Part shown: positions 3,555-12,258 of the stretch, one piece after another
Layout: every line of letters begins with the position of its first letter
How positions within the stretch are numbered: position 1 is the first letter of the stretch
Notes under the pieces: model-generated
What the model was told of the DNA's origin: nothing
Databases searched by the model: none
Seen by the model: only the letters and a program-made list of their open reading frames with translations
Assembly: GCA_045047305.1 (NCBI GenBank)
Contig: JASFYO010000082.1
Coordinates: 15,581-79,580, forward strand
Direction of reading: 5' to 3'
Length of the DNA: 64,000 nucleotides
Source of the DNA: Planctomycetota bacterium
Lineage (GTDB): Bacteria > Planctomycetota > UBA1135
Translations under genes and position numbers: made by a program

Positions 3555-6500
3555 TTACTTGTTCTTAGGAATGCGCCGTTCTTCGTTAGCGCTGTAGAGG
3601 ACCGGAACGACGAACATGGTGAGCAAAACAATGCACATGCCGCCGAAACTAGGAATGGCCATCGGCACCATGACATCGGCGCCGCGACCGGTAGAGGTAA
3701 GGACTGGCAGTAACGCCAAAATGGTGGTTGCTGTCGTCATGAGAGCGGGGCCCACTCGGCGTTTGCCTGCGACCACAACCGCTTCACGTACCTCTTGACG
3801 CGTATGCGGTTTCAAGCTCTTAAAGCTTTGCTTGAGGTAGGTGCCCATAATCACGCCATCGTCTGTGGCAATGCCGAACAGAGCTAGGAATCCAACCCAG
3901 ACTGCTACGGAAAGGTTGATGGGGTGCACTTGGAAGAGTTCACGCATGGAGTTTCCGAACAGGTCGAAATCCAAGAACCAATTTTGTCCGTACAGCCACA
4001 GCATGAGGAAGCCACCGGACCAAGCAACAAACACACCGCTAAACACCATGAGGGTGGTCAGGAAAGAGCGGAAGTTCAATTGAAGCACCATGAGGATGAG
4101 AAGCAGGGCGATAGGCAGAACGATGAGCAGGGTTTTTGAGGCCCGTATCTGGCTTTCGTAAGTACCAGCAAACCTATAAGTCACGCCCACTGGCAGTACA
4201 AGGCTGCCATCCTCAATGTGCTTCGTGAGAATCCTCTGCGCTTCTTCGACTACATCCACCTCAGCAAGGTCTGGTTGTTTGTCGAAAGTGACGTAGGCGG
4301 TGAGGAACGTGTCTTCCGTTTTGATGACTTGTGGCCCACGTCGGAAACCGATGTCTGCCACTTGCCCCAAAGGAATGTGCCCGCCTTGAGGGAGGGGTAG
4401 CCAAAGTGCACGCAGATCATCTACATCACCGCGGAGTTCATGTGGGTAACGCACGCGAAGATTAAATCGTTCACGTCCTTCCACCGATTGGGAAACTACC
4501 GTTCCGCCAAAAGCCGTCATCAGGTGAGCCTGTACCGCGGCAACCGTAAGCCCGTAACGTGCCGCATCTTCGCGGCGGATTTCCACTTCAAGATAAGGTT
4601 TACCAATCACTCGGTCAGCAAAAACGGCAGCCGGAACCACGCCTGGCATTTGCTTCAATTCTTTTTCAAGCAGTAGTGCAGCCGATTCTAGTGAAACGAG
4701 ATCGGGAGCGGCGACTTTAATCCCCATGGGAGCACGCATACCACTTTGAAGCATGACCAGTCGCGTTTCGATGGGTTGTAACTTGGGAGCAGAAGTCATT
4801 CCAAGTAATTTTGCGTGGGAAGTAATTTCTTTCCAGATGTCGTCTGGACTTTTGATTTCATCACGCCAATTTCGCACGCGCTCTCCGTCTTCATTGAAGG
4901 AGAATTCTGGCTTGTAGAGAATGACGTTTTCCACCATGGAAATCGGTGCCGGGTCGAGCGCCGTATCGGCACGCCCAATCTTGCCGACCGATGACTCCAC
5001 CTCTGGGATGGATGCAATCGCTTGGTCCAAGAGGCTAATCATTTCGACCGCTTGCTGCATGGATGCGTGAGGCGGCATGGTTGGCATGTAGAGGAAGCTC
5101 CCCTCATCTAGAGAAGGCATAAATTCTTTACCAAATCCAGGAAGAGTTTTAGTGCCTTCGGTCCAGAAGGAAGTGCGATAAACGGAATCGCGCTCCACTC
5201 CGACTTTCTCCAATGTCGTCGGCACAAAGTTAAAGACTTTATCGAATCCAAGCCAGGCACTAGTTCCAAAAAAGACAATGGAAATGGGTATGGAAAGGAA
5301 AAGGAGTTTATGGTTCAAGCACCAGCGCAGAATGCGTCCATACGCCAGGTGAAACAGCCAGAAGAATCCAATCAGGCTGCCCATCGTTAAGGTTACGAAC
5401 AAGTAGTTAGTGGTATCCCGTCCGAGGCCAAGGGGCTGCCAGTAAGAACTTAGGACTCCAATCAGCAACAGTGCAACAATCAAAATCCCTAAGTGGTGAG
5501 GGAGTTTGGTGAAGCGGCCTAAGCGTGGCATCACTATGCCCTTTACCTTGGCCCAGAGCGGCGGGGTAGGCTCGTTGTTATTGCGGAAAAGGAAAACCGC
5601 AAGGGTTGGGATGAGCAACAGAGCTACTACGACGGATGCTCCAAGAGTAAAGGTTTTTGTAAAAGCCAGAGGCTTAAACATTTTGCCTTCAGCTCCGGTC
5701 ATCGCAAATACCGGCAGGAACCCAAGGATGGTCGTGGTGACCGCAGTCATGACGGCACCGCCGACTTCATTTGCAGCGTAGTGAACCGATTGCACTCGAG
5801 TTTCACCTTTCGGTGCCGAGGACAGTCGCTGCACAATGTTTTCTGCCAAAACAATCCCCATGTCGGCAATGGTGCCGATGGCGATGGCGATTCCAGACAA
5901 TGCAACAATGTTTGCATCGATACCAAAAATCTTCATCATTACGAAGGCGCCAAGTACCGTTACCGGAAGGGATAAACCCACCAGCAGCGCGGCACGCAAA
6001 CGTAATAAGAGAAGCAGGATGACGATCATGGTCACCAAAACTTCAAGAGTGAGTGCTTCCTCTAGAGTGAAAAGCGTTTCATGAATCAAACCGGTGCGGT
6101 CGTAAAACGGCACGATGGTGATTTGGCTCACGGTGCCATCGGGCAAGGTGACTTTCGGTAAGCTTGGAGCGATCCGAGCGATTTCGGCCTTCACTTTGTC
6201 CAGGACAGCCAAAGAATTAGTTCCGTAACGAACCGTGACTACTCCACCGACAACCTCGTGCCCGTTTTTGTCCAAAGCACCACGTCGAGGCGCTGGGCCT
6301 AAGGTGACGTGTGCGACATCGGCAACCCGGAGCGGGGTGCCATCGCGTGCACGGATAGGGGAGCTTGCAATGTCTTCTGGACTATCAATCCAACCTTTGC
6401 CGCGGAGGATGTACTCCACACGGTTGAATTCCAGCACGCCAGCGCCAGTTTCTTGGTTCGCGCCACGCACTGCGGTTTGGACTTCCTTCAGGTCTACGTC

Positions 6501-7154
6501 GAAAGCGTGTAGAGCATCAGGATCAACTTCGACCACGTATTCGCGTTCGAAGCCTCCGATGCCAGCGACCTCACTTACCCCGGAGACAGCAGTTAGGGCG
6601 TAGCGCACCGTCCAATCTTGCACCGCACGCAGCTCATCGAGATCGAATCCACCGGTATGGTTGCCGTCGGCATCGCGGCCTTCCAGGGTGTACCAGAAGA
6701 CTTGGCCGAGGCCGGTAGCATCTGGTCCAAGGCCGGGCTGGACTTCACCGGGAAGCGTTCCAGATGGAAGACTATTTAACTTCTCTAGAATTCGCGAGCG
6801 CGACCAATAGAAATCGATATCTTCCTCAAAAATGATGTAGATGGAGCTGAAACCAAAAATGCTATTCGAGCGAATGGTTTTTACTCCGGGAACACCTAAA
6901 AGCGCAACCGTAAGCGGGTAGGTGATTTGATCTTCAACATCGCGCGGCGAGTTACCAGGCCATGGAGTGAAGACGATTTGTTGATTTTCGCCAAGGTCTG
7001 GAATGGCGTCGGCAGCAACCGGAAAGTGCGGCAAAAAGCCTTCTTCTTCCGCGCTGGAGAAGGGTGAGACGATAAGTCCACCGACTGCAATGCCAATTAA
7101 GAGCAGGCATACGAGCATGCGCTCGCGTAAAACGAAGTTTAGGAAACGATCCAT
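3555..7154 (-). CDS. cusA: CusA/CzcA-family heavy-metal RND efflux permease
   Basis: DAIPDLGENQQIVFT, LGPDATGLGQVFWY, GKEFMPSLDEGSFLYMP and GFLALFGIATDDGVIM motifs; 1199 aa. Confidence 0.95.
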   Translation of the reverse strand: MDRFLNFVLRERMLVCLLLIGIAVGGLIVSPFSSAEEEGFLPHFPVAADAIPDLGENQQIVFTPWPGNSPRDVEDQITYPLTVALLGVPGVKTIRSNSIFGFSSIYIIFEEDIDFYWSRSRILEKLNSLPSGTLPGEVQPGLGPDATGLGQVFWYTLEGRDADGNHTGGFDLDELRAVQDWTVRYALTAVSGVSEVAGIGGFEREYVVEVDPDALHAFDVDLKEVQTAVRGANQETGAGVLEFNRVEYILRGKGWIDSPEDIASSPIRARDGTPLRVADVAHVTLGPAPRRGALDKNGHEVVGGVVTVRYGTNSLAVLDKVKAEIARIAPSLPKVTLPDGTVSQITIVPFYDRTGLIHETLFTLEEALTLEVLVTMIVILLLLLRLRAALLVGLSLPVTVLGAFVMMKIFGIDANIVALSGIAIAIGTIADMGIVLAENIVQRLSSAPKGETRVQSVHYAANEVGGAVMTAVTTTILGFLPVFAMTGAEGKMFKPLAFTKTFTLGASVVVALLLIPTLAVFLFRNNNEPTPPLWAKVKGIVMPRLGRFTKLPHHLGILIVALLLIGVLSSYWQPLGLGRDTTNYLFVTLTMGSLIGFFWLFHLAYGRILRWCLNHKLLFLSIPISIVFFGTSAWLGFDKVFNFVPTTLEKVGVERDSVYRTSFWTEGTKTLPGFGKEFMPSLDEGSFLYMPTMPPHASMQQAVEMISLLDQAIASIPEVESSVGKIGRADTALDPAPISMVENVILYKPEFSFNEDGERVRNWRDEIKSPDDIWKEITSHAKLLGMTSAPKLQPIETRLVMLQSGMRAPMGIKVAAPDLVSLESAALLLEKELKQMPGVVPAAVFADRVIGKPYLEVEIRREDAARYGLTVAAVQAHLMTAFGGTVVSQSVEGRERFNLRVRYPHELRGDVDDLRALWLPLPQGGHIPLGQVADIGFRRGPQVIKTEDTFLTAYVTFDKQPDLAEVDVVEEAQRILTKHIEDGSLVLPVGVTYRFAGTYESQIRASKTLLIVLPIALLLILMVLQLNFRSFLTTLMVFSGVFVAWSGGFLMLWLYGQNWFLDFDLFGNSMRELFQVHPINLSVAVWVGFLALFGIATDDGVIMGTYLKQSFKSLKPHTRQEVREAVVVAGKRRVGPALMTTATTILALLPVLTSTGRGADVMVPMAIPSFGGMCIVLLTMFVVPVLYSANEERRIPKNK

Positions 7155-7163
7155 GCTTTTGGC

Positions 7164-9215
7164 CTACTGCTTGTCGAAGCCGGAAATGGCATTAGTTTCG
7201 TCGCCGCACTTCAACATGCTGGCTCCGTAGTATGGATTCCGAGTGGGATCTCCTTTGAAGTCAATCCAGTCAGCGCCATCGCCCATTGCCATCGGGCAAT
7301 GAAAAACCGACAGCTCTCGTTTCAGACCGGAGTATCCGAAACGGGTGCTCAGCTCCACCGAAGGCGCTAGCAGTTTGCTGAAGGCGGCCCGTAGTGGTTC
7401 GATTTCCGTGGTGGCCGCAGCCTCTGTCGTTGCTTGTTGGAGCGCCTGCAGCGGCTTGGATGCAGACTTTGGTGCACCGGTCTGGTTCATTGCGTTGAGC
7501 GTAGTTTGCAAAGCCAGCGTGGCATCTTTTGCAGCTTTCAAATCGTCGCTGGCAAGAGCATCACCAAAATCAGCAAGGTTCATCAATAAGCTGCCATTGA
7601 GCGTTTTGAATTCGACACTTGCTTGTTCCTCCTCCATATCCATTTGCGAATGGTCGCTGGCTGGCATGTCGTTCATTCCAGAATTTCCAGCGGCAGGGGG
7701 ACCACCCATGCCTGGCATGCCAGCGTGCCCACCGCCTGCGCCACCTCCGTTGGGTGCCATCATGGAAGGCTTGCCGCGCAGTTGGAGTTCGCTGTCGATA
7801 GTGAAGGCCCCGCGCGAAACGATGAGCTCACCTTCTTCGAGCCCTTCTTTCACAACAAAGAATTCTCCTGCACGCGGGCCGAGCACAATGTCACGGGTTT
7901 CAAAAATGGTTGCCTCGTGCAGTGAGGATCCGGGAATCTCTACGAAGACAATTGCGCGGTCTCCGGTTAACAGCGGAGCTGAGACAGGAATCAGTAAAGG
8001 AAGCTCAGAACTCTCTTTTTCACCGGCAAAGCCTAGACTTTCGGTGGTTTCTAAATCCATGTCGCATATAGGGCATTGGCCGGGAGCGTCAACAATGATT
8101 TCTGGATGCATGGGGCACATCCACATTCCGCTGAGATCCACCGGTGAAGGTTGTCCGGTTCCAACTACCATGGTTTGTACTTTGACTCGTGCAAACATTT
8201 CAGGGCGCAGCTTGCCATCGGCGTTGTCAACATCGACGCGCAAGTGAACGGTTCGGGTTATTGGATCTAAGACAGGGTCGATAAAGGTGATGACGCCGCG
8301 GAAGGTGTCTCCCGGCCATGCGTCGACCTCAAAAATGACATCCTGTCCGTAGCGCATCCAAGGCATGTCGGATTCATAGGCATCAATCTCGAGCCAAAGA
8401 TGATTGAGATCGGCGATGGTGTAAAGGGGATCGCCCTCCTTTACATACTGGCCTTCGACCGCATTGCGATGAATCACCGTTCCCCCCATGGGTGCCGATA
8501 GGGTGATTTGCTCAGACGGTTCTCCTAGGTCGACAATCTCCTGCATTTGTTCCTCAGTGATTCCGTATAAAGCAAGCTTCTTGCGCGCGGCAACCACGGT
8601 GGAATGAGATATTTTCTGCAGCGACTCATCGCTTTGCATGCCGAAGCGTTTTGCCGATTCCACTGCAACAATGAGCTCTTCTTGCGCATGAAACAACTGT
8701 GGCGAATAGATTTCAGCCATGTGATCGCCAGCACGCACCTTCAGTCCAGTGTAGTCCACGTATAGACGGTCGAGGCGCCCTCCAACCCAAGCCGAGAGGA
8801 CGGCCAGGGCAGTTTCGTCAATAGCGAGCTTGCCCACAAGCCGTACCGTATGCGCGATTTCGCGCCTTTGGACCGGGGTGGTTCGAATGCCTGCTATCGC
8901 TTTCTGACCTTCCTCTAAGCGGAGAGTGCGCGGTCCATCGTGGCTACTTGCAGCGCCGCTTTCTAGAGGAATCAAAGTCATTCCACAGATGGGACAGTTA
9001 CCCGGTTTATGGGCCTTAATCGATGGATGCATGGAGCAAGTCCAAAGTTCCGGGGCTTGGGCTGGGGAGGAATCGGAAGCGGCTGCGGTGTGATCATGAG
9101 AATCACTGGCGGGCATGCTGTCCATGGGAGTAAAGCACTTCCCAATGAGCAATCCAAGGAATAACACCACCACAAGGGTGCTTAGGCGGGGTAAAAACTT
9201 GAGCAAATGATTCAT
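7164..9215 (-). CDS. cusB: CusB-family membrane fusion protein with two heavy-metal-binding domains and a C-terminal DUF3347-like domain
   Basis: WTCSMHP..CPICGM and WMCPMHP..CPICDM motifs, MFP core, Met-rich linker, CPMA..NPYYG..MLKCG at the C-terminus. Confidence 0.92.
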   Translation of the reverse strand: MNHLLKFLPRLSTLVVVLFLGLLIGKCFTPMDSMPASDSHDHTAAASDSSPAQAPELWTCSMHPSIKAHKPGNCPICGMTLIPLESGAASSHDGPRTLRLEEGQKAIAGIRTTPVQRREIAHTVRLVGKLAIDETALAVLSAWVGGRLDRLYVDYTGLKVRAGDHMAEIYSPQLFHAQEELIVAVESAKRFGMQSDESLQKISHSTVVAARKKLALYGITEEQMQEIVDLGEPSEQITLSAPMGGTVIHRNAVEGQYVKEGDPLYTIADLNHLWLEIDAYESDMPWMRYGQDVIFEVDAWPGDTFRGVITFIDPVLDPITRTVHLRVDVDNADGKLRPEMFARVKVQTMVVGTGQPSPVDLSGMWMCPMHPEIIVDAPGQCPICDMDLETTESLGFAGEKESSELPLLIPVSAPLLTGDRAIVFVEIPGSSLHEATIFETRDIVLGPRAGEFFVVKEGLEEGELIVSRGAFTIDSELQLRGKPSMMAPNGGGAGGGHAGMPGMGGPPAAGNSGMNDMPASDHSQMDMEEEQASVEFKTLNGSLLMNLADFGDALASDDLKAAKDATLALQTTLNAMNQTGAPKSASKPLQALQQATTEAAATTEIEPLRAAFSKLLAPSVELSTRFGYSGLKRELSVFHCPMAMGDGADWIDFKGDPTRNPYYGASMLKCGDETNAISGFDKQ

Positions 9216-10597
9216 CGTTCTAGGTTTTCTTGGAGCAAGAGGTCGGCGGACAACAGACCGTTCAGGTCAGCAAAGGCAAGAGCAGCATCGGCAGTGGCGC
9301 GTGCGGCAGAAAGGCGAAAGTCGAGCATGATGCGGGCGGCATCAAGCATGTCTTGAAAAGCAGCCTGCCCAGATTGGTAGGCAACTAGAGTGGTTTCATA
9401 AGTTTGTTCCGCTAGTGGAAGTAACTTTTCTTCAAATAGTCGCACCCGGCGTAAAGCATCTTCGTGAGCAGAGAGGGCTTGCTGTAACGTGGCCAGCAAC
9501 TCCCATTGGCGCGACTCGATTTGGGCAATGACACTGCGTTGCAATGCTAGAGCTTGGCGTCTTCCGCCTTGAATCCGGCCTTGGCCCAAGGGCAGTTCAA
9601 TTGCCAGGGTCAGGGCGATGGCGTCATCACCAGAGTCGATTTGGGTCGGATTTCCATCCCCAATCCAGGTCCATGCAGCCCCAACGGAAAGATCCGGACG
9701 CTGCTCCAAATCGGCCATGCGTTGCGATTCTTGAGCCGCTAAGAGTTGCGCACGTAGTTGTTGCAAATCTGGTGATTCGGTTAACAGGCGGGTCGTCAAG
9801 GTGCTTTCTGAAGCCAGTTCTGGAAGCGGAGCGAATTCAAGTGCACCCCAATCGGTGGGCCCAGTGGCAGGAGCACCAATGGCTGCTTCGAGCGCGGCAA
9901 GCAGTGGATCCTCGCGCTCTAATAGGGTGTCGAGACGGTCGTTCATTTCTAAACGCTCGACCTGAGTGCGGAGGACATCGGCCTGGGAAACTTGTGAAGC
10001 TTCATATAGGCGCAAACTTACATCCTCAATGTGGTGCAATAGAGAGACTTGACCCGCGGTGATCTCCTCAGCTTTTTGGAGGTAGATCCGCTCCGCCCAG
10101 CTGCGCAAAAATGCGCGACGTACGGCTAGTCGAGAGATTTCAATTTGGTTGCGTGCAACTTCTGCAAGTGCAGAGGCTTGATCTCCGGCGGCATCTAGCT
10201 TTCCAGGCCATGGAATTTTTTGGGTGAAACCAATATTTGCATCCATCGGGCCAGTGCGGGTTTCAACCGATTGCACATAGCCGGTCAAGCTTAGCCAGGG
10301 GTCGGGGAGCGCAGTAACTTGAGGCACGCGCTCTAAGGCTGCTTGCCATTTCTGGTAAGCAAAACGCACTTTAGGACTCGCGGTAATGGCGCGCACAAGG
10401 AGGTCATCCGTGCTTTCCTGGGGAGACCAAGGTGCGTTTGCGCTTGGATTACCGGGCTCTTTGTCCTCCGTTTGTGCAACGCGAGGCATGACCTGGGAAC
10501 GTTCCGCATAGTCTTCAGCGGAAGAGGAGGGATTACTTTGGCAGCCAATGAGTAGGCTGCAGAGCAAAGCAGTGCTTACGAATTTTGGGGAGTGCAT
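9212..10597 (-). CDS. TolC/CusC-family outer-membrane efflux lipoprotein
   Basis: Lipobox LIGC, ALPDP and QKIPWPGKL motifs, helical repeats; ATGA overlap with cusB. Confidence 0.9.
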   Translation of the reverse strand: MHSPKFVSTALLCSLLIGCQSNPSSSAEDYAERSQVMPRVAQTEDKEPGNPSANAPWSPQESTDDLLVRAITASPKVRFAYQKWQAALERVPQVTALPDPWLSLTGYVQSVETRTGPMDANIGFTQKIPWPGKLDAAGDQASALAEVARNQIEISRLAVRRAFLRSWAERIYLQKAEEITAGQVSLLHHIEDVSLRLYEASQVSQADVLRTQVERLEMNDRLDTLLEREDPLLAALEAAIGAPATGPTDWGALEFAPLPELASESTLTTRLLTESPDLQQLRAQLLAAQESQRMADLEQRPDLSVGAAWTWIGDGNPTQIDSGDDAIALTLAIELPLGQGRIQGGRRQALALQRSVIAQIESRQWELLATLQQALSAHEDALRRVRLFEEKLLPLAEQTYETTLVAYQSGQAAFQDMLDAARIMLDFRLSAARATADAALAFADLNGLLSADLLLQENLER

Positions 10598-10660: not shown

Positions 10661-11089
10661 TCAAATGAGAAAACGTTGGAAGCTTAAATACAGTGGTCGC
10701 GGTGGACCACGCGGAGGCCCAACAGAAACTGCTTCGCTTGCACGGCCGCAAGGAGGGTAATAGAGCGAAATTTGCTCAAACATGCAGGTCTGTAGAGCCG
10801 AGGAGGTTTTGTCCTCAGATGGAATGCGGGCACCCTCTTTGCTTGACGGCGGGGCCAATGGCAAGTTGAACTCACAACAGCATCCGGCGGAAAGAGAAGT
10901 GCCGTTTTCTTCTGTGGGCGCCTGGTGATCCGTGCAACAGCAAGACATAGAAGCCATGGCTTCCATTTCTGCGCATGAGACCCCAGCTGCCAAAACCGCA
11001 CCCAAACTGCTTGGAAGCAGTAGCAGCACAGTGGCAACGAAGGTGAGAAAGGCTTGCATGGGCATAAAGTAGAACATGTTTTGGGGCAA
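10661..11089 (-). CDS. Small Cys-rich exported leader protein with C-terminal RGPP motif (start may be an internal Met, e.g. MQAFL)
   Basis: Signal/TM segment, two CCC clusters, ends VGPPRGPPRPLYLSFQRFLI; first gene of the cus-like operon. Confidence 0.7.
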   Translation of the reverse strand: MPQNMFYFMPMQAFLTFVATVLLLLPSSLGAVLAAGVSCAEMEAMASMSCCCTDHQAPTEENGTSLSAGCCCEFNLPLAPPSSKEGARIPSEDKTSSALQTCMFEQISLYYPPCGRASEAVSVGPPRGPPRPLYLSFQRFLI

Positions 11090-11319
11090 TTATTCCTCGT
11101 TTTTGAGACAAAAATCCAAAAGAGTTGGCTTGCGTCAAAAAAGACCGCCTTGGACCTTTCCACGCTCCTATTGGAGCTGGATTCCTGGCTCCTTTTCATG
11201 AGTAAGAATAAAGTCGAAACTGAGAGAATAGAGAGCCGCATCCATGGAGCACCCCGAAGCATGCGGCTCTTCAGCTGCAGGAATTCTGCCATAATGAGGC
11301 CGTTCGGATTTGGACATTC

Positions 11320-12258
11320 ATGAAGCTTTCCTCAAAACACACTTTGCCCGTACTTGCCGCGATTGCCGCACTCTCTGCTCCAGCCTTCTCCCAATGAGGC
11401 GGCTGAAAAAATCCTAATCTACCGGTCGGTGGATTAAATGCATTTCAAAACGGCGACGATGTCATCGATTTTTCCTCTAAGCCTTGGACCGAGCGTATGC
11501 GGTACAGCATTGGCTTTAGTACTGCGACCAGCAACAAAATTTACAGTGGGTCCAGCGAAGTGCCCAATCCCACAGGGGAAGAAACGGAATTCCAGCAGTG
11601 GGCTTTGAACCTTCACTACCAGCAAAGCGCCCAGCATCGGTGGAGCTTAACCATGCCAACTATTTCGATTGAAGCACGAAATAATACGGGAGTGTTAGAA
11701 AAGGTTTCAGGTTTAGGAGACTTTGCCTTGGTCCATGGTTGGCGCCCGCAAGTCAGTGGCCCATGGGAGCTTTTGGTAGGCTTAGAATTGCCGACTGGGG
11801 AAGAGTTGGCCACGCCAGCTCCTGGGGTGATTCCTCCTTCCTTATTGCAGCCTGGAAGTGGAACTTGGGATCCAATGCTTGGCGTTTCGTGGACCAAAGT
11901 GACGGGCGAATTCAGCCACACCTTGAATGGCATAGGTTTGTTTCCCCTTGGTTCTTCTGATGCAGGCCTCAATCCCGGTAATCTGATGCAGGCCATGTAC
12001 CGCTTGGGTTGGAAGGTGAATGCCTCCGCCGAGGCCTCCTTCGGAGTTGAAGGGATTTTTCGTTCCAAGGACAAACTACTTGGCACTACTTTGGCAAACA
12101 CAAGCTCTAGCGTTTACGCCATTCGGCCTGGACTCCGCTGGGCATTTGAGGATGTCACTCTATTCGTTGGTGCGCGTTTTCCTTTCGCCTACGATGTTAA
12201 CGACACCCAAATCGCACCGGGTAATTTGCTTGAGTTTTGGTTCGGGTATGGGGGCTAA
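11320..12258 (+). CDS. Probable double-selenocysteine (UxxU) outer-membrane transporter-like protein (PF13557-like beta-barrel), 312 aa
   Basis: ATG at 11320 gives signal peptide MKLSSKHTLPVLAAIAALSAPAFS, then Q-TGA(11395)-G-G-TGA(11404)-KNPNLPVGG, continuous in frame with ORF 11497..12258 (GLGD, GLELPTG, LQPGSGTWDP, aromatic C-terminal strand). SECIS-like hairpin at 11415-11436. Confidence 0.8.
11415..11436 (+). promoter_or_regulatory. Bacterial SECIS-like hairpin
   Basis: TAATCTACC-GGTC-GGTGGATTA: 9-bp stem with one G-U pair and a GGUC loop, 17 nt after the second UGA and 26 nt after the first. The loop resembles the GGUC apical loop of the E. coli fdhF SECIS. Confidence 0.7.

Follow-up and report, generated by a model that had tools for sequence, protein, structure and literature searches.

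A predicted two-selenocysteine outer-membrane barrel of Planctomycetota and its heavy-metal gene context

The window analysed here (the whole stretch of 64,000 nt from a Planctomycetota bacterium) contains a frame that raises two questions: whether a gene with two in-frame UGA codons encodes an exported selenoprotein, and what such a protein might do next to a copper efflux operon. All that a normal gene caller sees of this gene is a stop-free ORF of 253 aa starting at ATG 11497. According to the original prediction, the frame reaches back to ATG 11320, with a signal peptide ending AFS and Q-TGA-G-G-TGA directly behind it. Translation agreed: between ATG 11320 and the TAA at 12256–12258 there are exactly two in-frame TGA codons, at 11395–11397 and 11404–11406 (+ strand; predicted Sec26 and Sec29), and no further break. 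Below, G-numbers denote genomes, L-numbers loci and P-numbers proteins, G000 being the genome of the window.

With UGA read as Sec, the full coding sequence (11320–12258, + strand) specifies 312 aa comprising a signal peptide, Q-U-G-G-U and a β-barrel, an architecture shared by 19 genomes of the order. The signal peptide (11320–11391, + strand), recognised from the sequence, is a hydrophobic segment of 24 aa ending in A-F-S; the mature chain would start at Gln25 and begin Q-U-G-G-U. In the relatives, a hydrophobic leader of 20–26 aa ends in AxA, AHG or ARG and is followed by Q or QT. The remaining part (11497–12255, + strand) was assigned as a PF13557/COG4313-type outer-membrane β-barrel, using the PF13557 profile and a comparison of the structure model with 4RL8. 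A six-frame count in the genome gave 1644 in-frame U-x-x-U motifs, 19 of which have at least 150 open codons behind them. Among these 19, this gene alone pairs a hydrophobic leader with a SECIS-type hairpin suited to both UGAs; a second candidate passes both hairpin tests, but lacks a hydrophobic leader. A 10-bp inverted repeat (11232–11270) is located 50 nt upstream of the start codon, and none was seen by eye upstream of the close relatives L044, L059 and L061.

Analysis of the Sec machinery revealed that all four components (selA, selB, selC and selD) are present in G000 (completeness 87.7%), each over its cut-off: selA with 464 bits, selB with 280, selD with 299 and tRNA-Sec with 75.6. The tRNA-Sec gene, selA and selD, which carries an in-frame TGA of its own (U-A-A-K, with a long G-containing hairpin), lie within 7 kb of one another (G000:C29:99551-106253), and selB is on another contig. 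Among the other carriers tested, selA was found in 16/16 and selB in 14/16. Since both genes are present in 44 of the 49 genomes tested, they do not discriminate carriers.

ARAGORN identified one UCA tRNA (the tRNA-Sec), one Cys (GCA) tRNA and one Trp tRNA in G000, and TGA serves as the terminator of 388 out of 1302 long ORFs. Because TGA often serves as a stop and tRNA-Sec is the sole UCA tRNA, UGA is not reassigned, and an alternative genetic code was ruled out. It is also very improbable that one or both UGAs are read as Cys by SelC*/tRNA-ReC, yielding a protein with Cys or a Cys/Sec mix. The enrichment of tRNA-ReC in genomes with UXXU hydrogenases (PMC13582414, in part) and the incompleteness of G000 speak for this explanation, but no SelC*-type tRNA was found in G000 with ARAGORN, and RF01852 gave a single match over cut-off.

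The motif U-x-G-U was found in 19 out of 339 genomes of the order, in all 19 behind a signal peptide, with TGA at both positions. In the profile search of the 339 genomes, all 15 matches with E < 1e-89 have two TGA, and the next ones, from E 2.7e-35, are mostly Cys-less paralogues (among the matches listed, to which 29 weaker ones are additional). G028 contains an additional partial copy with the motif. A DNA pattern search produced 30 matches, i.e. the 15 known loci, three new barrels (G007, G041 and G108) and 12 chance occurrences. The new barrels (L142, L147 and L148, respectively) form a longer (326–336 aa), more His-rich paralogous branch, also with U-x-G-U. A scan of the genome contigs with the single protein returned one locus. 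The closest named relative, L043 from a Planctomycetota MAG, shows 84% identity.

That the frame represents a pseudogene, a sequencing error or the effect of a reassigned code is scarcely credible, even though a relative in G005 has a further in-frame TAG and the protein studied ends in Y-G-G instead of the Phe of most relatives. Against this explanation, both TGAs are kept in the 19 genomes at 22–86% protein identity, with open frames behind them, and a 99%-identical contig (run X1, which may be related to the source of the window) differs at 16 listed places, none of which falls within 11392–11450; the use of TGA as a terminator argues against the reassigned code. In the G005 copy (L023/L054), both UGAs and the hairpin are kept and the TAG lies 39 codons into the mature protein; this copy may be a recent pseudogene or an assembly error.

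According to the original prediction, CxxC, UxxC or CxxU in homologues at residues 26 and 29 would support the Sec reading. The best 80 of 260 metagenome loci comprise 31 UxxU, 21 UxxC, one CxxC and one GGCU locus, 20 motif-less loci from distant clades and 6 loci ended by the contig. In the 54 motif-bearing loci, the first position is TGA in 52 and TGC in one; the remaining locus, with the shifted GGCU, is the only one without U or C at this position. The second position is TGA in 32 loci and a Cys codon in 22, and a non-Cys sense codon was found there in none of the 54. UxxU, UxxC and CxxC occupy the same columns, and two loci, L085 (CSGC) and L101 (USGC), even share one 90% cluster. Four full-length CxGC proteins (P0139, P0053, P0159 and P0093) were placed among the Sec forms in a tree of 123 proteins built from the barrel columns: all Sec forms except L124 fall into one clade (support 93), with the CxGC forms interspersed. 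This tree was calculated with FastTree only and without L142, L147 and L148; its deep branches are weak and no direction of Sec gain or loss was drawn from it.

Taken together, the Cys homologues, the Sec machinery and the hairpin placement (see below) support the view that the gene encodes an exported U-x-x-U selenoprotein whose two conserved in-frame UGAs are decoded as Sec, a reading that we hold, from the sequences, with high confidence. The original prediction had named three findings that would speak against it, none of which was observed; what was found is Cys or Sec in the motif-bearing homologues, a complete set of sel genes and no non-Cys sense codon at the second position.

The predicted SECIS-type hairpin (11415–11436, + strand) is situated inside the codons for P-N-L-P-V-G-G-L. 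It consists of 9 bp (11415–11423 paired with 11428–11436) and a GGUC loop (11424–11427), with an energy of −10.7 kcal/mol. The loop follows the first UGA at a distance of 26 nt and the second at 17 nt, in agreement with the SECIS-compatible distance originally proposed. The bacterial SECIS model specifies a loop of 3–9 nt with G as the first or second base, a stem of 4–16 bp, a spacing of 16–37 nt and an MFE of at most −7.5 (PMC13188914, in part), and the hairpin conforms to it in loop, stem, spacing (for both UGAs) and energy. When folded as a 39-nt piece, it was better than 200 of 200 shuffles (z −3.3); in four longer folded pieces it was unremarkable (z only −2.2 to +0.1).

When 12 genes were aligned, the hairpin was paired in 84% of cells and showed 15 double changes, and its covariation (0.357, compared to 0.196 for shuffled sequences) was matched by none of 500 shuffles and by no slid register. 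With 49 genes, one fixed register fits only 70% of cells, which by that measure is still above shuffles and slides, but the count of pairs with double changes was not above them. The Val codon within the hairpin is GTC in all 22 L/P-P-V genes. In the GGCU gene and the majority of the UxxU and UxxC genes, 29–30 nt separate the start of the loop from the first base of the motif. This identical position in genes with the first UGA only, the second only, or both supports one SECIS for two UGAs, as had been suggested for this gene and as has likewise been proposed for UXXU hydrogenases (PMC13582414, in part). It is therefore highly probable, judging from the placement of one hairpin that suits both codons, that SelB bound to a single GGUC hairpin inserts Sec at both UGAs. 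The naturally occurring versions (UxxU, UxxC, CxxC and the one with the second UGA alone), whose hairpin is unmoved, constitute a clean test system for asking whether two closely spaced UGAs can share a single bacterial SECIS.

The original prediction did not recognise the gene as a member of a described selenoprotein family, and the databases agree. No PF13557-type entry occurs among the 119 selenoprotein families in Table 1 of a 2026 catalogue (PMC13188914, in part), and NCBIfam 20.0 returned no family at E 0.001 for 12 members (8 Sec-form, 4 Cys-form); at E 0.1, the query gave a chance-level match only. In the portions of PMC12013277, PMC13326102, PMC13745706 and bioRxiv 2022.07.06.499078 that were available, no mention of a PF13557-type selenoprotein barrel was found; the last describes Sec as very uncommon in transporters. 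A literature search, whose coverage excludes Haft and Tolstoy 2025 (PMC12013261) and part of the BSepDB supplement, yielded no description of a U-x-x-U barrel family, and no papers combining PF13557 and copper. Sec-for-Cys exchange, UxxU motifs and outer-membrane selenoproteins are each already known. The present analysis adds a broad predicted selenoprotein family whose database entries are nearly all headless fragments: a search of 1.84 billion representatives gave 47 best matches, of which 43 are devoid of a hydrophobic N-terminus, as expected from truncation at UGA. Several of these headless representatives match UGA-bearing loci of this set, and others could be contig fragments. With the signal peptide missing from 43 of the 47, the export, the motif and the metal link stayed invisible.

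The body of the protein had been proposed to be a PF13557-type barrel, and both the profile and the fold bear this out. PF13557 is the only Pfam match of the gene (E 1.9e-9; 38.4 bits, compared to a cut-off of 22), and several distant Sec-form relatives have no match to this model. In two structure models the barrel was predicted with confidence (mean pLDDT 91.3 and 90.9; barrel pLDDT > 90). The best structural match was 4RL8, the 12-stranded barrel of Pput2725 (Foldseek E 6.6e-13, TM 0.72; VIA Z 26.3, rmsd 2.3 over 253 residues), followed in likeness by FapF (5O65; Z 23.9). A PDB sequence search gave no match for the single protein and, with the profile, only FapF (E 0.009); an ESM Atlas query with P0139 gave only unnamed or PF13557 clusters.

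An N-terminal plug had been anticipated in addition to the barrel. In the two models, the second of which was folded with 97 sequences (at least 45 of them with the motif), pLDDT was below 50 at residues 1–18 and 1–20; the barrel part of the proposal stood, and the position of the plug is by analogy only. The 14 residues at the N-terminus of 4RL8 are folded into the barrel lumen from its periplasmic side (PMC4493636, in part), and U-G-G-U may be at the periplasmic side, in the corresponding place. Both known barrels have an N-terminal segment ahead of strand 1, but differ from the protein studied in sequence (14–18% identity), in the U-x-G-U at the mature tip of the latter, and in length before strand 1 (about 35 residues here, compared to 14 in Pput2725).

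The genes divergent from the barrel were predicted to be cusCBA-copA. The operon is as stated (order cusC-cusB-cusA-YHS/TRASH protein-DUF2231-copA, all on the − strand): a CusC-like outer-membrane efflux protein (9212–10597; PF02321), a CusB-like adaptor with HMBD and DUF3347 domains (7164–9215; PF16576, PF19335, PF11827), a CusA/CzcA-family heavy-metal RND pump (3555–7154; TIGR00914, 761 bits compared to a cut-off of 701) and a CopA-type P1B ATPase with two HMA domains (1–2033; TIGR01511 over cut-off), which extends past the window and has 814 aa in total. However, the two are not direct neighbours, since a Cys-rich, exported-looking ORF of 134 aa (10661–11065, − strand), with a hydrophobic N-terminus and R-G-P-P near the C-terminus, intervenes and heads the divergent operon. 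It has no Pfam or NCBIfam match; we take it to resemble the metal-responsive leader peptides of the DUF2946/CruR type with RAPP-like arrest motifs. Just before the window, past copA (G000:C82:8003-14967), another RND set for heavy metals follows, which comprises an outer-membrane factor, an adaptor and a CzcA-like pump, as judged by N-termini. It has a separate Cys-containing leader and includes another YHS-like protein, and the gene therefore borders a metal island of approximately 19 kb. No MerR-type operator is present upstream of the gene in the window, and neither MerT nor MerA was matched in G000.

Examination of the relatives revealed that synteny with copper genes is local. Metal genes adjoin in only three of the 19 carrier genomes, namely Cus genes in G000 and its congener G004 and a MerR-type regulator in another congener, G007; the other 16 have no metal gene nearby, several of their contigs being short. 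Among metagenome loci, cusB is found at L059 and L061, and a CusA-type gene near L079 and L099. Strict copper synteny was thus ruled out, with Cus genes beside 2/19 carriers.

The metagenome loci contain a different set of partners. The order merR - barrel - CopZ/MerT/HMA fusion was found at L063 and L067, merR - MerT-like - barrel - HMA (merP-like) at L094, L099 and L108, a divergent merR at L082, L086 and L102, cusA - arsP - barrel - HMA at L079, and an HMA-thioredoxin gene at L110. A MerR, HMA, MerT, CopZ-N, Cus or ArsP gene lies within 3.5 kb in 19 out of 49 Sec-bearing 90% clusters and in one out of 16 motif-less distant ones (13/31 and 1/13, respectively, with flanks of at least 3 kb); both the operator pattern and the queries for metal genes had been derived from the same loci, and kin are not independent. 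The metal context recurs in five separate branches of the tree and in G007. Of 20 MerR-linked Sec loci, 17 have a palindromic operator behind a TTGAC box in their upstream DNA, as has L131, and none of 20 motif-less loci has one; in G007, a MerR-type operator lies about 90 nt before the motif, directly ahead of the gene. All 20 regulators in which the relevant part is present have Cys at the position where, by the MerR-family rule, Cys marks divalent and Ser monovalent sensors (PMC11591864, in part). With such regulators, MerT-like and HMA proteins as the partners elsewhere, the ‘soft metal’ part of the original proposal holds better than its ‘Cu/Ag’ part, the copper link being local. For the gene studied, Cu/Ag from the cus-cop island is plausible, and elsewhere the ion would be divalent (Hg, Cd, Zn or Pb).

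The metal link may, on the other hand, be wider than the Sec branch of the PF13557 family. Cys-less PF13557 paralogues occur directly behind MerR-type regulators, together with CopZ/MerT or HMA genes, at L139 (G018), L140 (G010) and L077; the motif is thus not required for this context, and the motif-less control is not clean. These paralogues, and the 16 of 19 carriers with no metal neighbour, fit a reading in which the gene is a true double selenoprotein whose U-x-x-U is a redox switch or a structural diselenide. The motif would then gate or stabilise a channel through which an organic solute passes that is hydrophobic or contains sulfur/selenium, and metal genes would be the context of only some branches. 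A periplasmic U-x-x-U would tend toward oxidation to the diselenide, which counts against a metal site. Thioredoxin-like genes adjoin the barrel at L098, L101 and L110, and AhpD-like and deiodinase-like ones do so at L063; these neighbours point the same way, as do the characterised COG4313 members, which are tied to hydrophobic solutes, Pput2725 passing hydrophilic ones poorly (PMC4493636, in part). Nevertheless, MerR-type operators directly upstream in distant branches, the co-oriented HMA and MerT-like genes and the absence of any catabolic gene recurring as a neighbour across branches make this explanation rather unlikely.

We lean towards a two-Sec outer-membrane channel with a soft-metal site at its periplasmic tip, which would trap metal and release it outward. 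After recoding of both UGAs by SelB at the single hairpin, the N-terminal segment would be periplasmic and, as in 4RL8, able to fold into the lumen as a plug. The selenolate pair would probably form a high-affinity site with two ligands, comparable to the CxxC of MerP/CopZ, and might exchange metal with HMA chaperones; soft heavy-metal ions bound in the periplasm would then be passed through the pore. Trapping and outward release would form part of detoxification, and this direction is favoured because the cassettes are placed behind activators that respond to excess metal or next to efflux pumps, and because mercuric reductase was not found. MerA (TIGR02053) reached the cut-off in none of 50 draft genomes and was absent from the scanned neighbours (genomes incomplete, contigs short), MerT occurred in one of the 16 carriers known at that stage, and in the 50 genomes the MerA, MerT and MerR profiles did not co-occur with the gene.

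The opposite direction, in which the channel would admit Hg(II), organomercurials or neutral metal complexes towards MerP-like and MerT-like proteins, either to acquire metal or to supply the outer-membrane step that a mer-like relay lacks, appears improbable. The merR - merT-like - barrel - merP-like loci and the barrels preceding a CopZ/MerT/HMA fusion would suit such an import, and PcoB alone imports copper, with its direction of transport disputed (PMC9210255, in part). Import without a reductase would be harmful, however, and MerA was not detected above its cut-off in the 50 genomes, MerT is unmatched in G000 and the neighbour here is an efflux island.

A broader proposal is put forward only tentatively: a widespread, unannotated branch of COG4313 may consist of selenium-gated heavy-metal channels. 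In these, a diselenol/diselenide at the tip of the periplasmic plug would take over a soft metal ion from HMA chaperones and thereby open the pore, the MerR cassettes would gain a dedicated outer-membrane step, and a single SECIS would recode two UGAs at a distance of nine bases. Heavy-metal defence would thus be a new role for barrels that have so far been associated with hydrophobic solutes.

The metal-resistance context contrasts with the hydrophobic-solute uptake of Pput2725 and the amyloid export of FapF. Distant relatives resemble the mer operon in their MerR-type regulator with a palindromic operator and their MerT-like and MerP-like neighbours, but apart from one MerT domain these neighbours do not reach the cut-offs of MerR, MerP and MerT, and MerA was not found. 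To our knowledge, the classical mer operon does not include an outer-membrane barrel of its own. The FCYXU TonB-dependent receptor (NF049945) and the GSU2204 MtrB/PioB-type barrel (NF041027) are likewise predicted to be exported to the outer membrane and to carry Sec instead of Cys (PMC13188914, in part), but they belong to other families and have one Sec each. Two Sec three codons apart, in a motif of the metal-ligand type, are also present in the UxxU metal-binding family NF041115, the MerT/CopZ fusion NF045683 and the UXXU Group 4 [NiFeSe] hydrogenases; HMA relatives of NF041115 are neighbours of the barrel at several loci. Those UxxU proteins are HMA domains or enzymes, whereas here the motif is carried by a predicted membrane channel and has natural variants in which one UGA, either the first or the second, stands alone.

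In its likely way of working, the protein resembles PcoB/CopB (7PGE), an outer-membrane barrel of a metal-defence operon with a disordered N-terminal domain of metal ligands (PMC12509749, in part). The structural match is only Z 12.9, among generic barrels, and the ligands of PcoB are His/Met rather than Sec/Cys; the gene studied has PF13557 as its Pfam assignment and an N-terminus without His or Met, and no multicopper oxidase was seen among the neighbours scanned.

Several further features were noted around the relatives. At L063 (7068-7772, + strand), a lipoprotein frame runs through three TGAs, with U-L-G-U in an HMA-like part and U-I-T-C in a thioredoxin-like part; it is located behind the CopZ/MerT/HMA fusion, with AhpD-like and deiodinase-like fragments upstream; together they form an entire cluster of putative selenoproteins linked to MerR. 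At L082, L086, L102 and L131, an ORF of about 30 codons with two Cys runs, metallothionein-like or a leader peptide, lies between the operator and the barrel. Membrane proteins of about 100 aa with R-P-C-C overlap the start of the barrel at L093 (4615-4914), L099 (2172-2474), L100 (1339-1632) and L121, and show weak matches to MerT/MerC (PF02411, best E 1.6e-5). Many other, distant PF13557 branches (for instance P0041, P0107, P0113 and P0125; L091, L111 and L129) have C-D-x-C, C-S-S-C-G-C, S-C-G, C-C or His-rich segments right behind the signal peptide, which suggests that N-termini with metal ligands occur across much of the PF13557 family.
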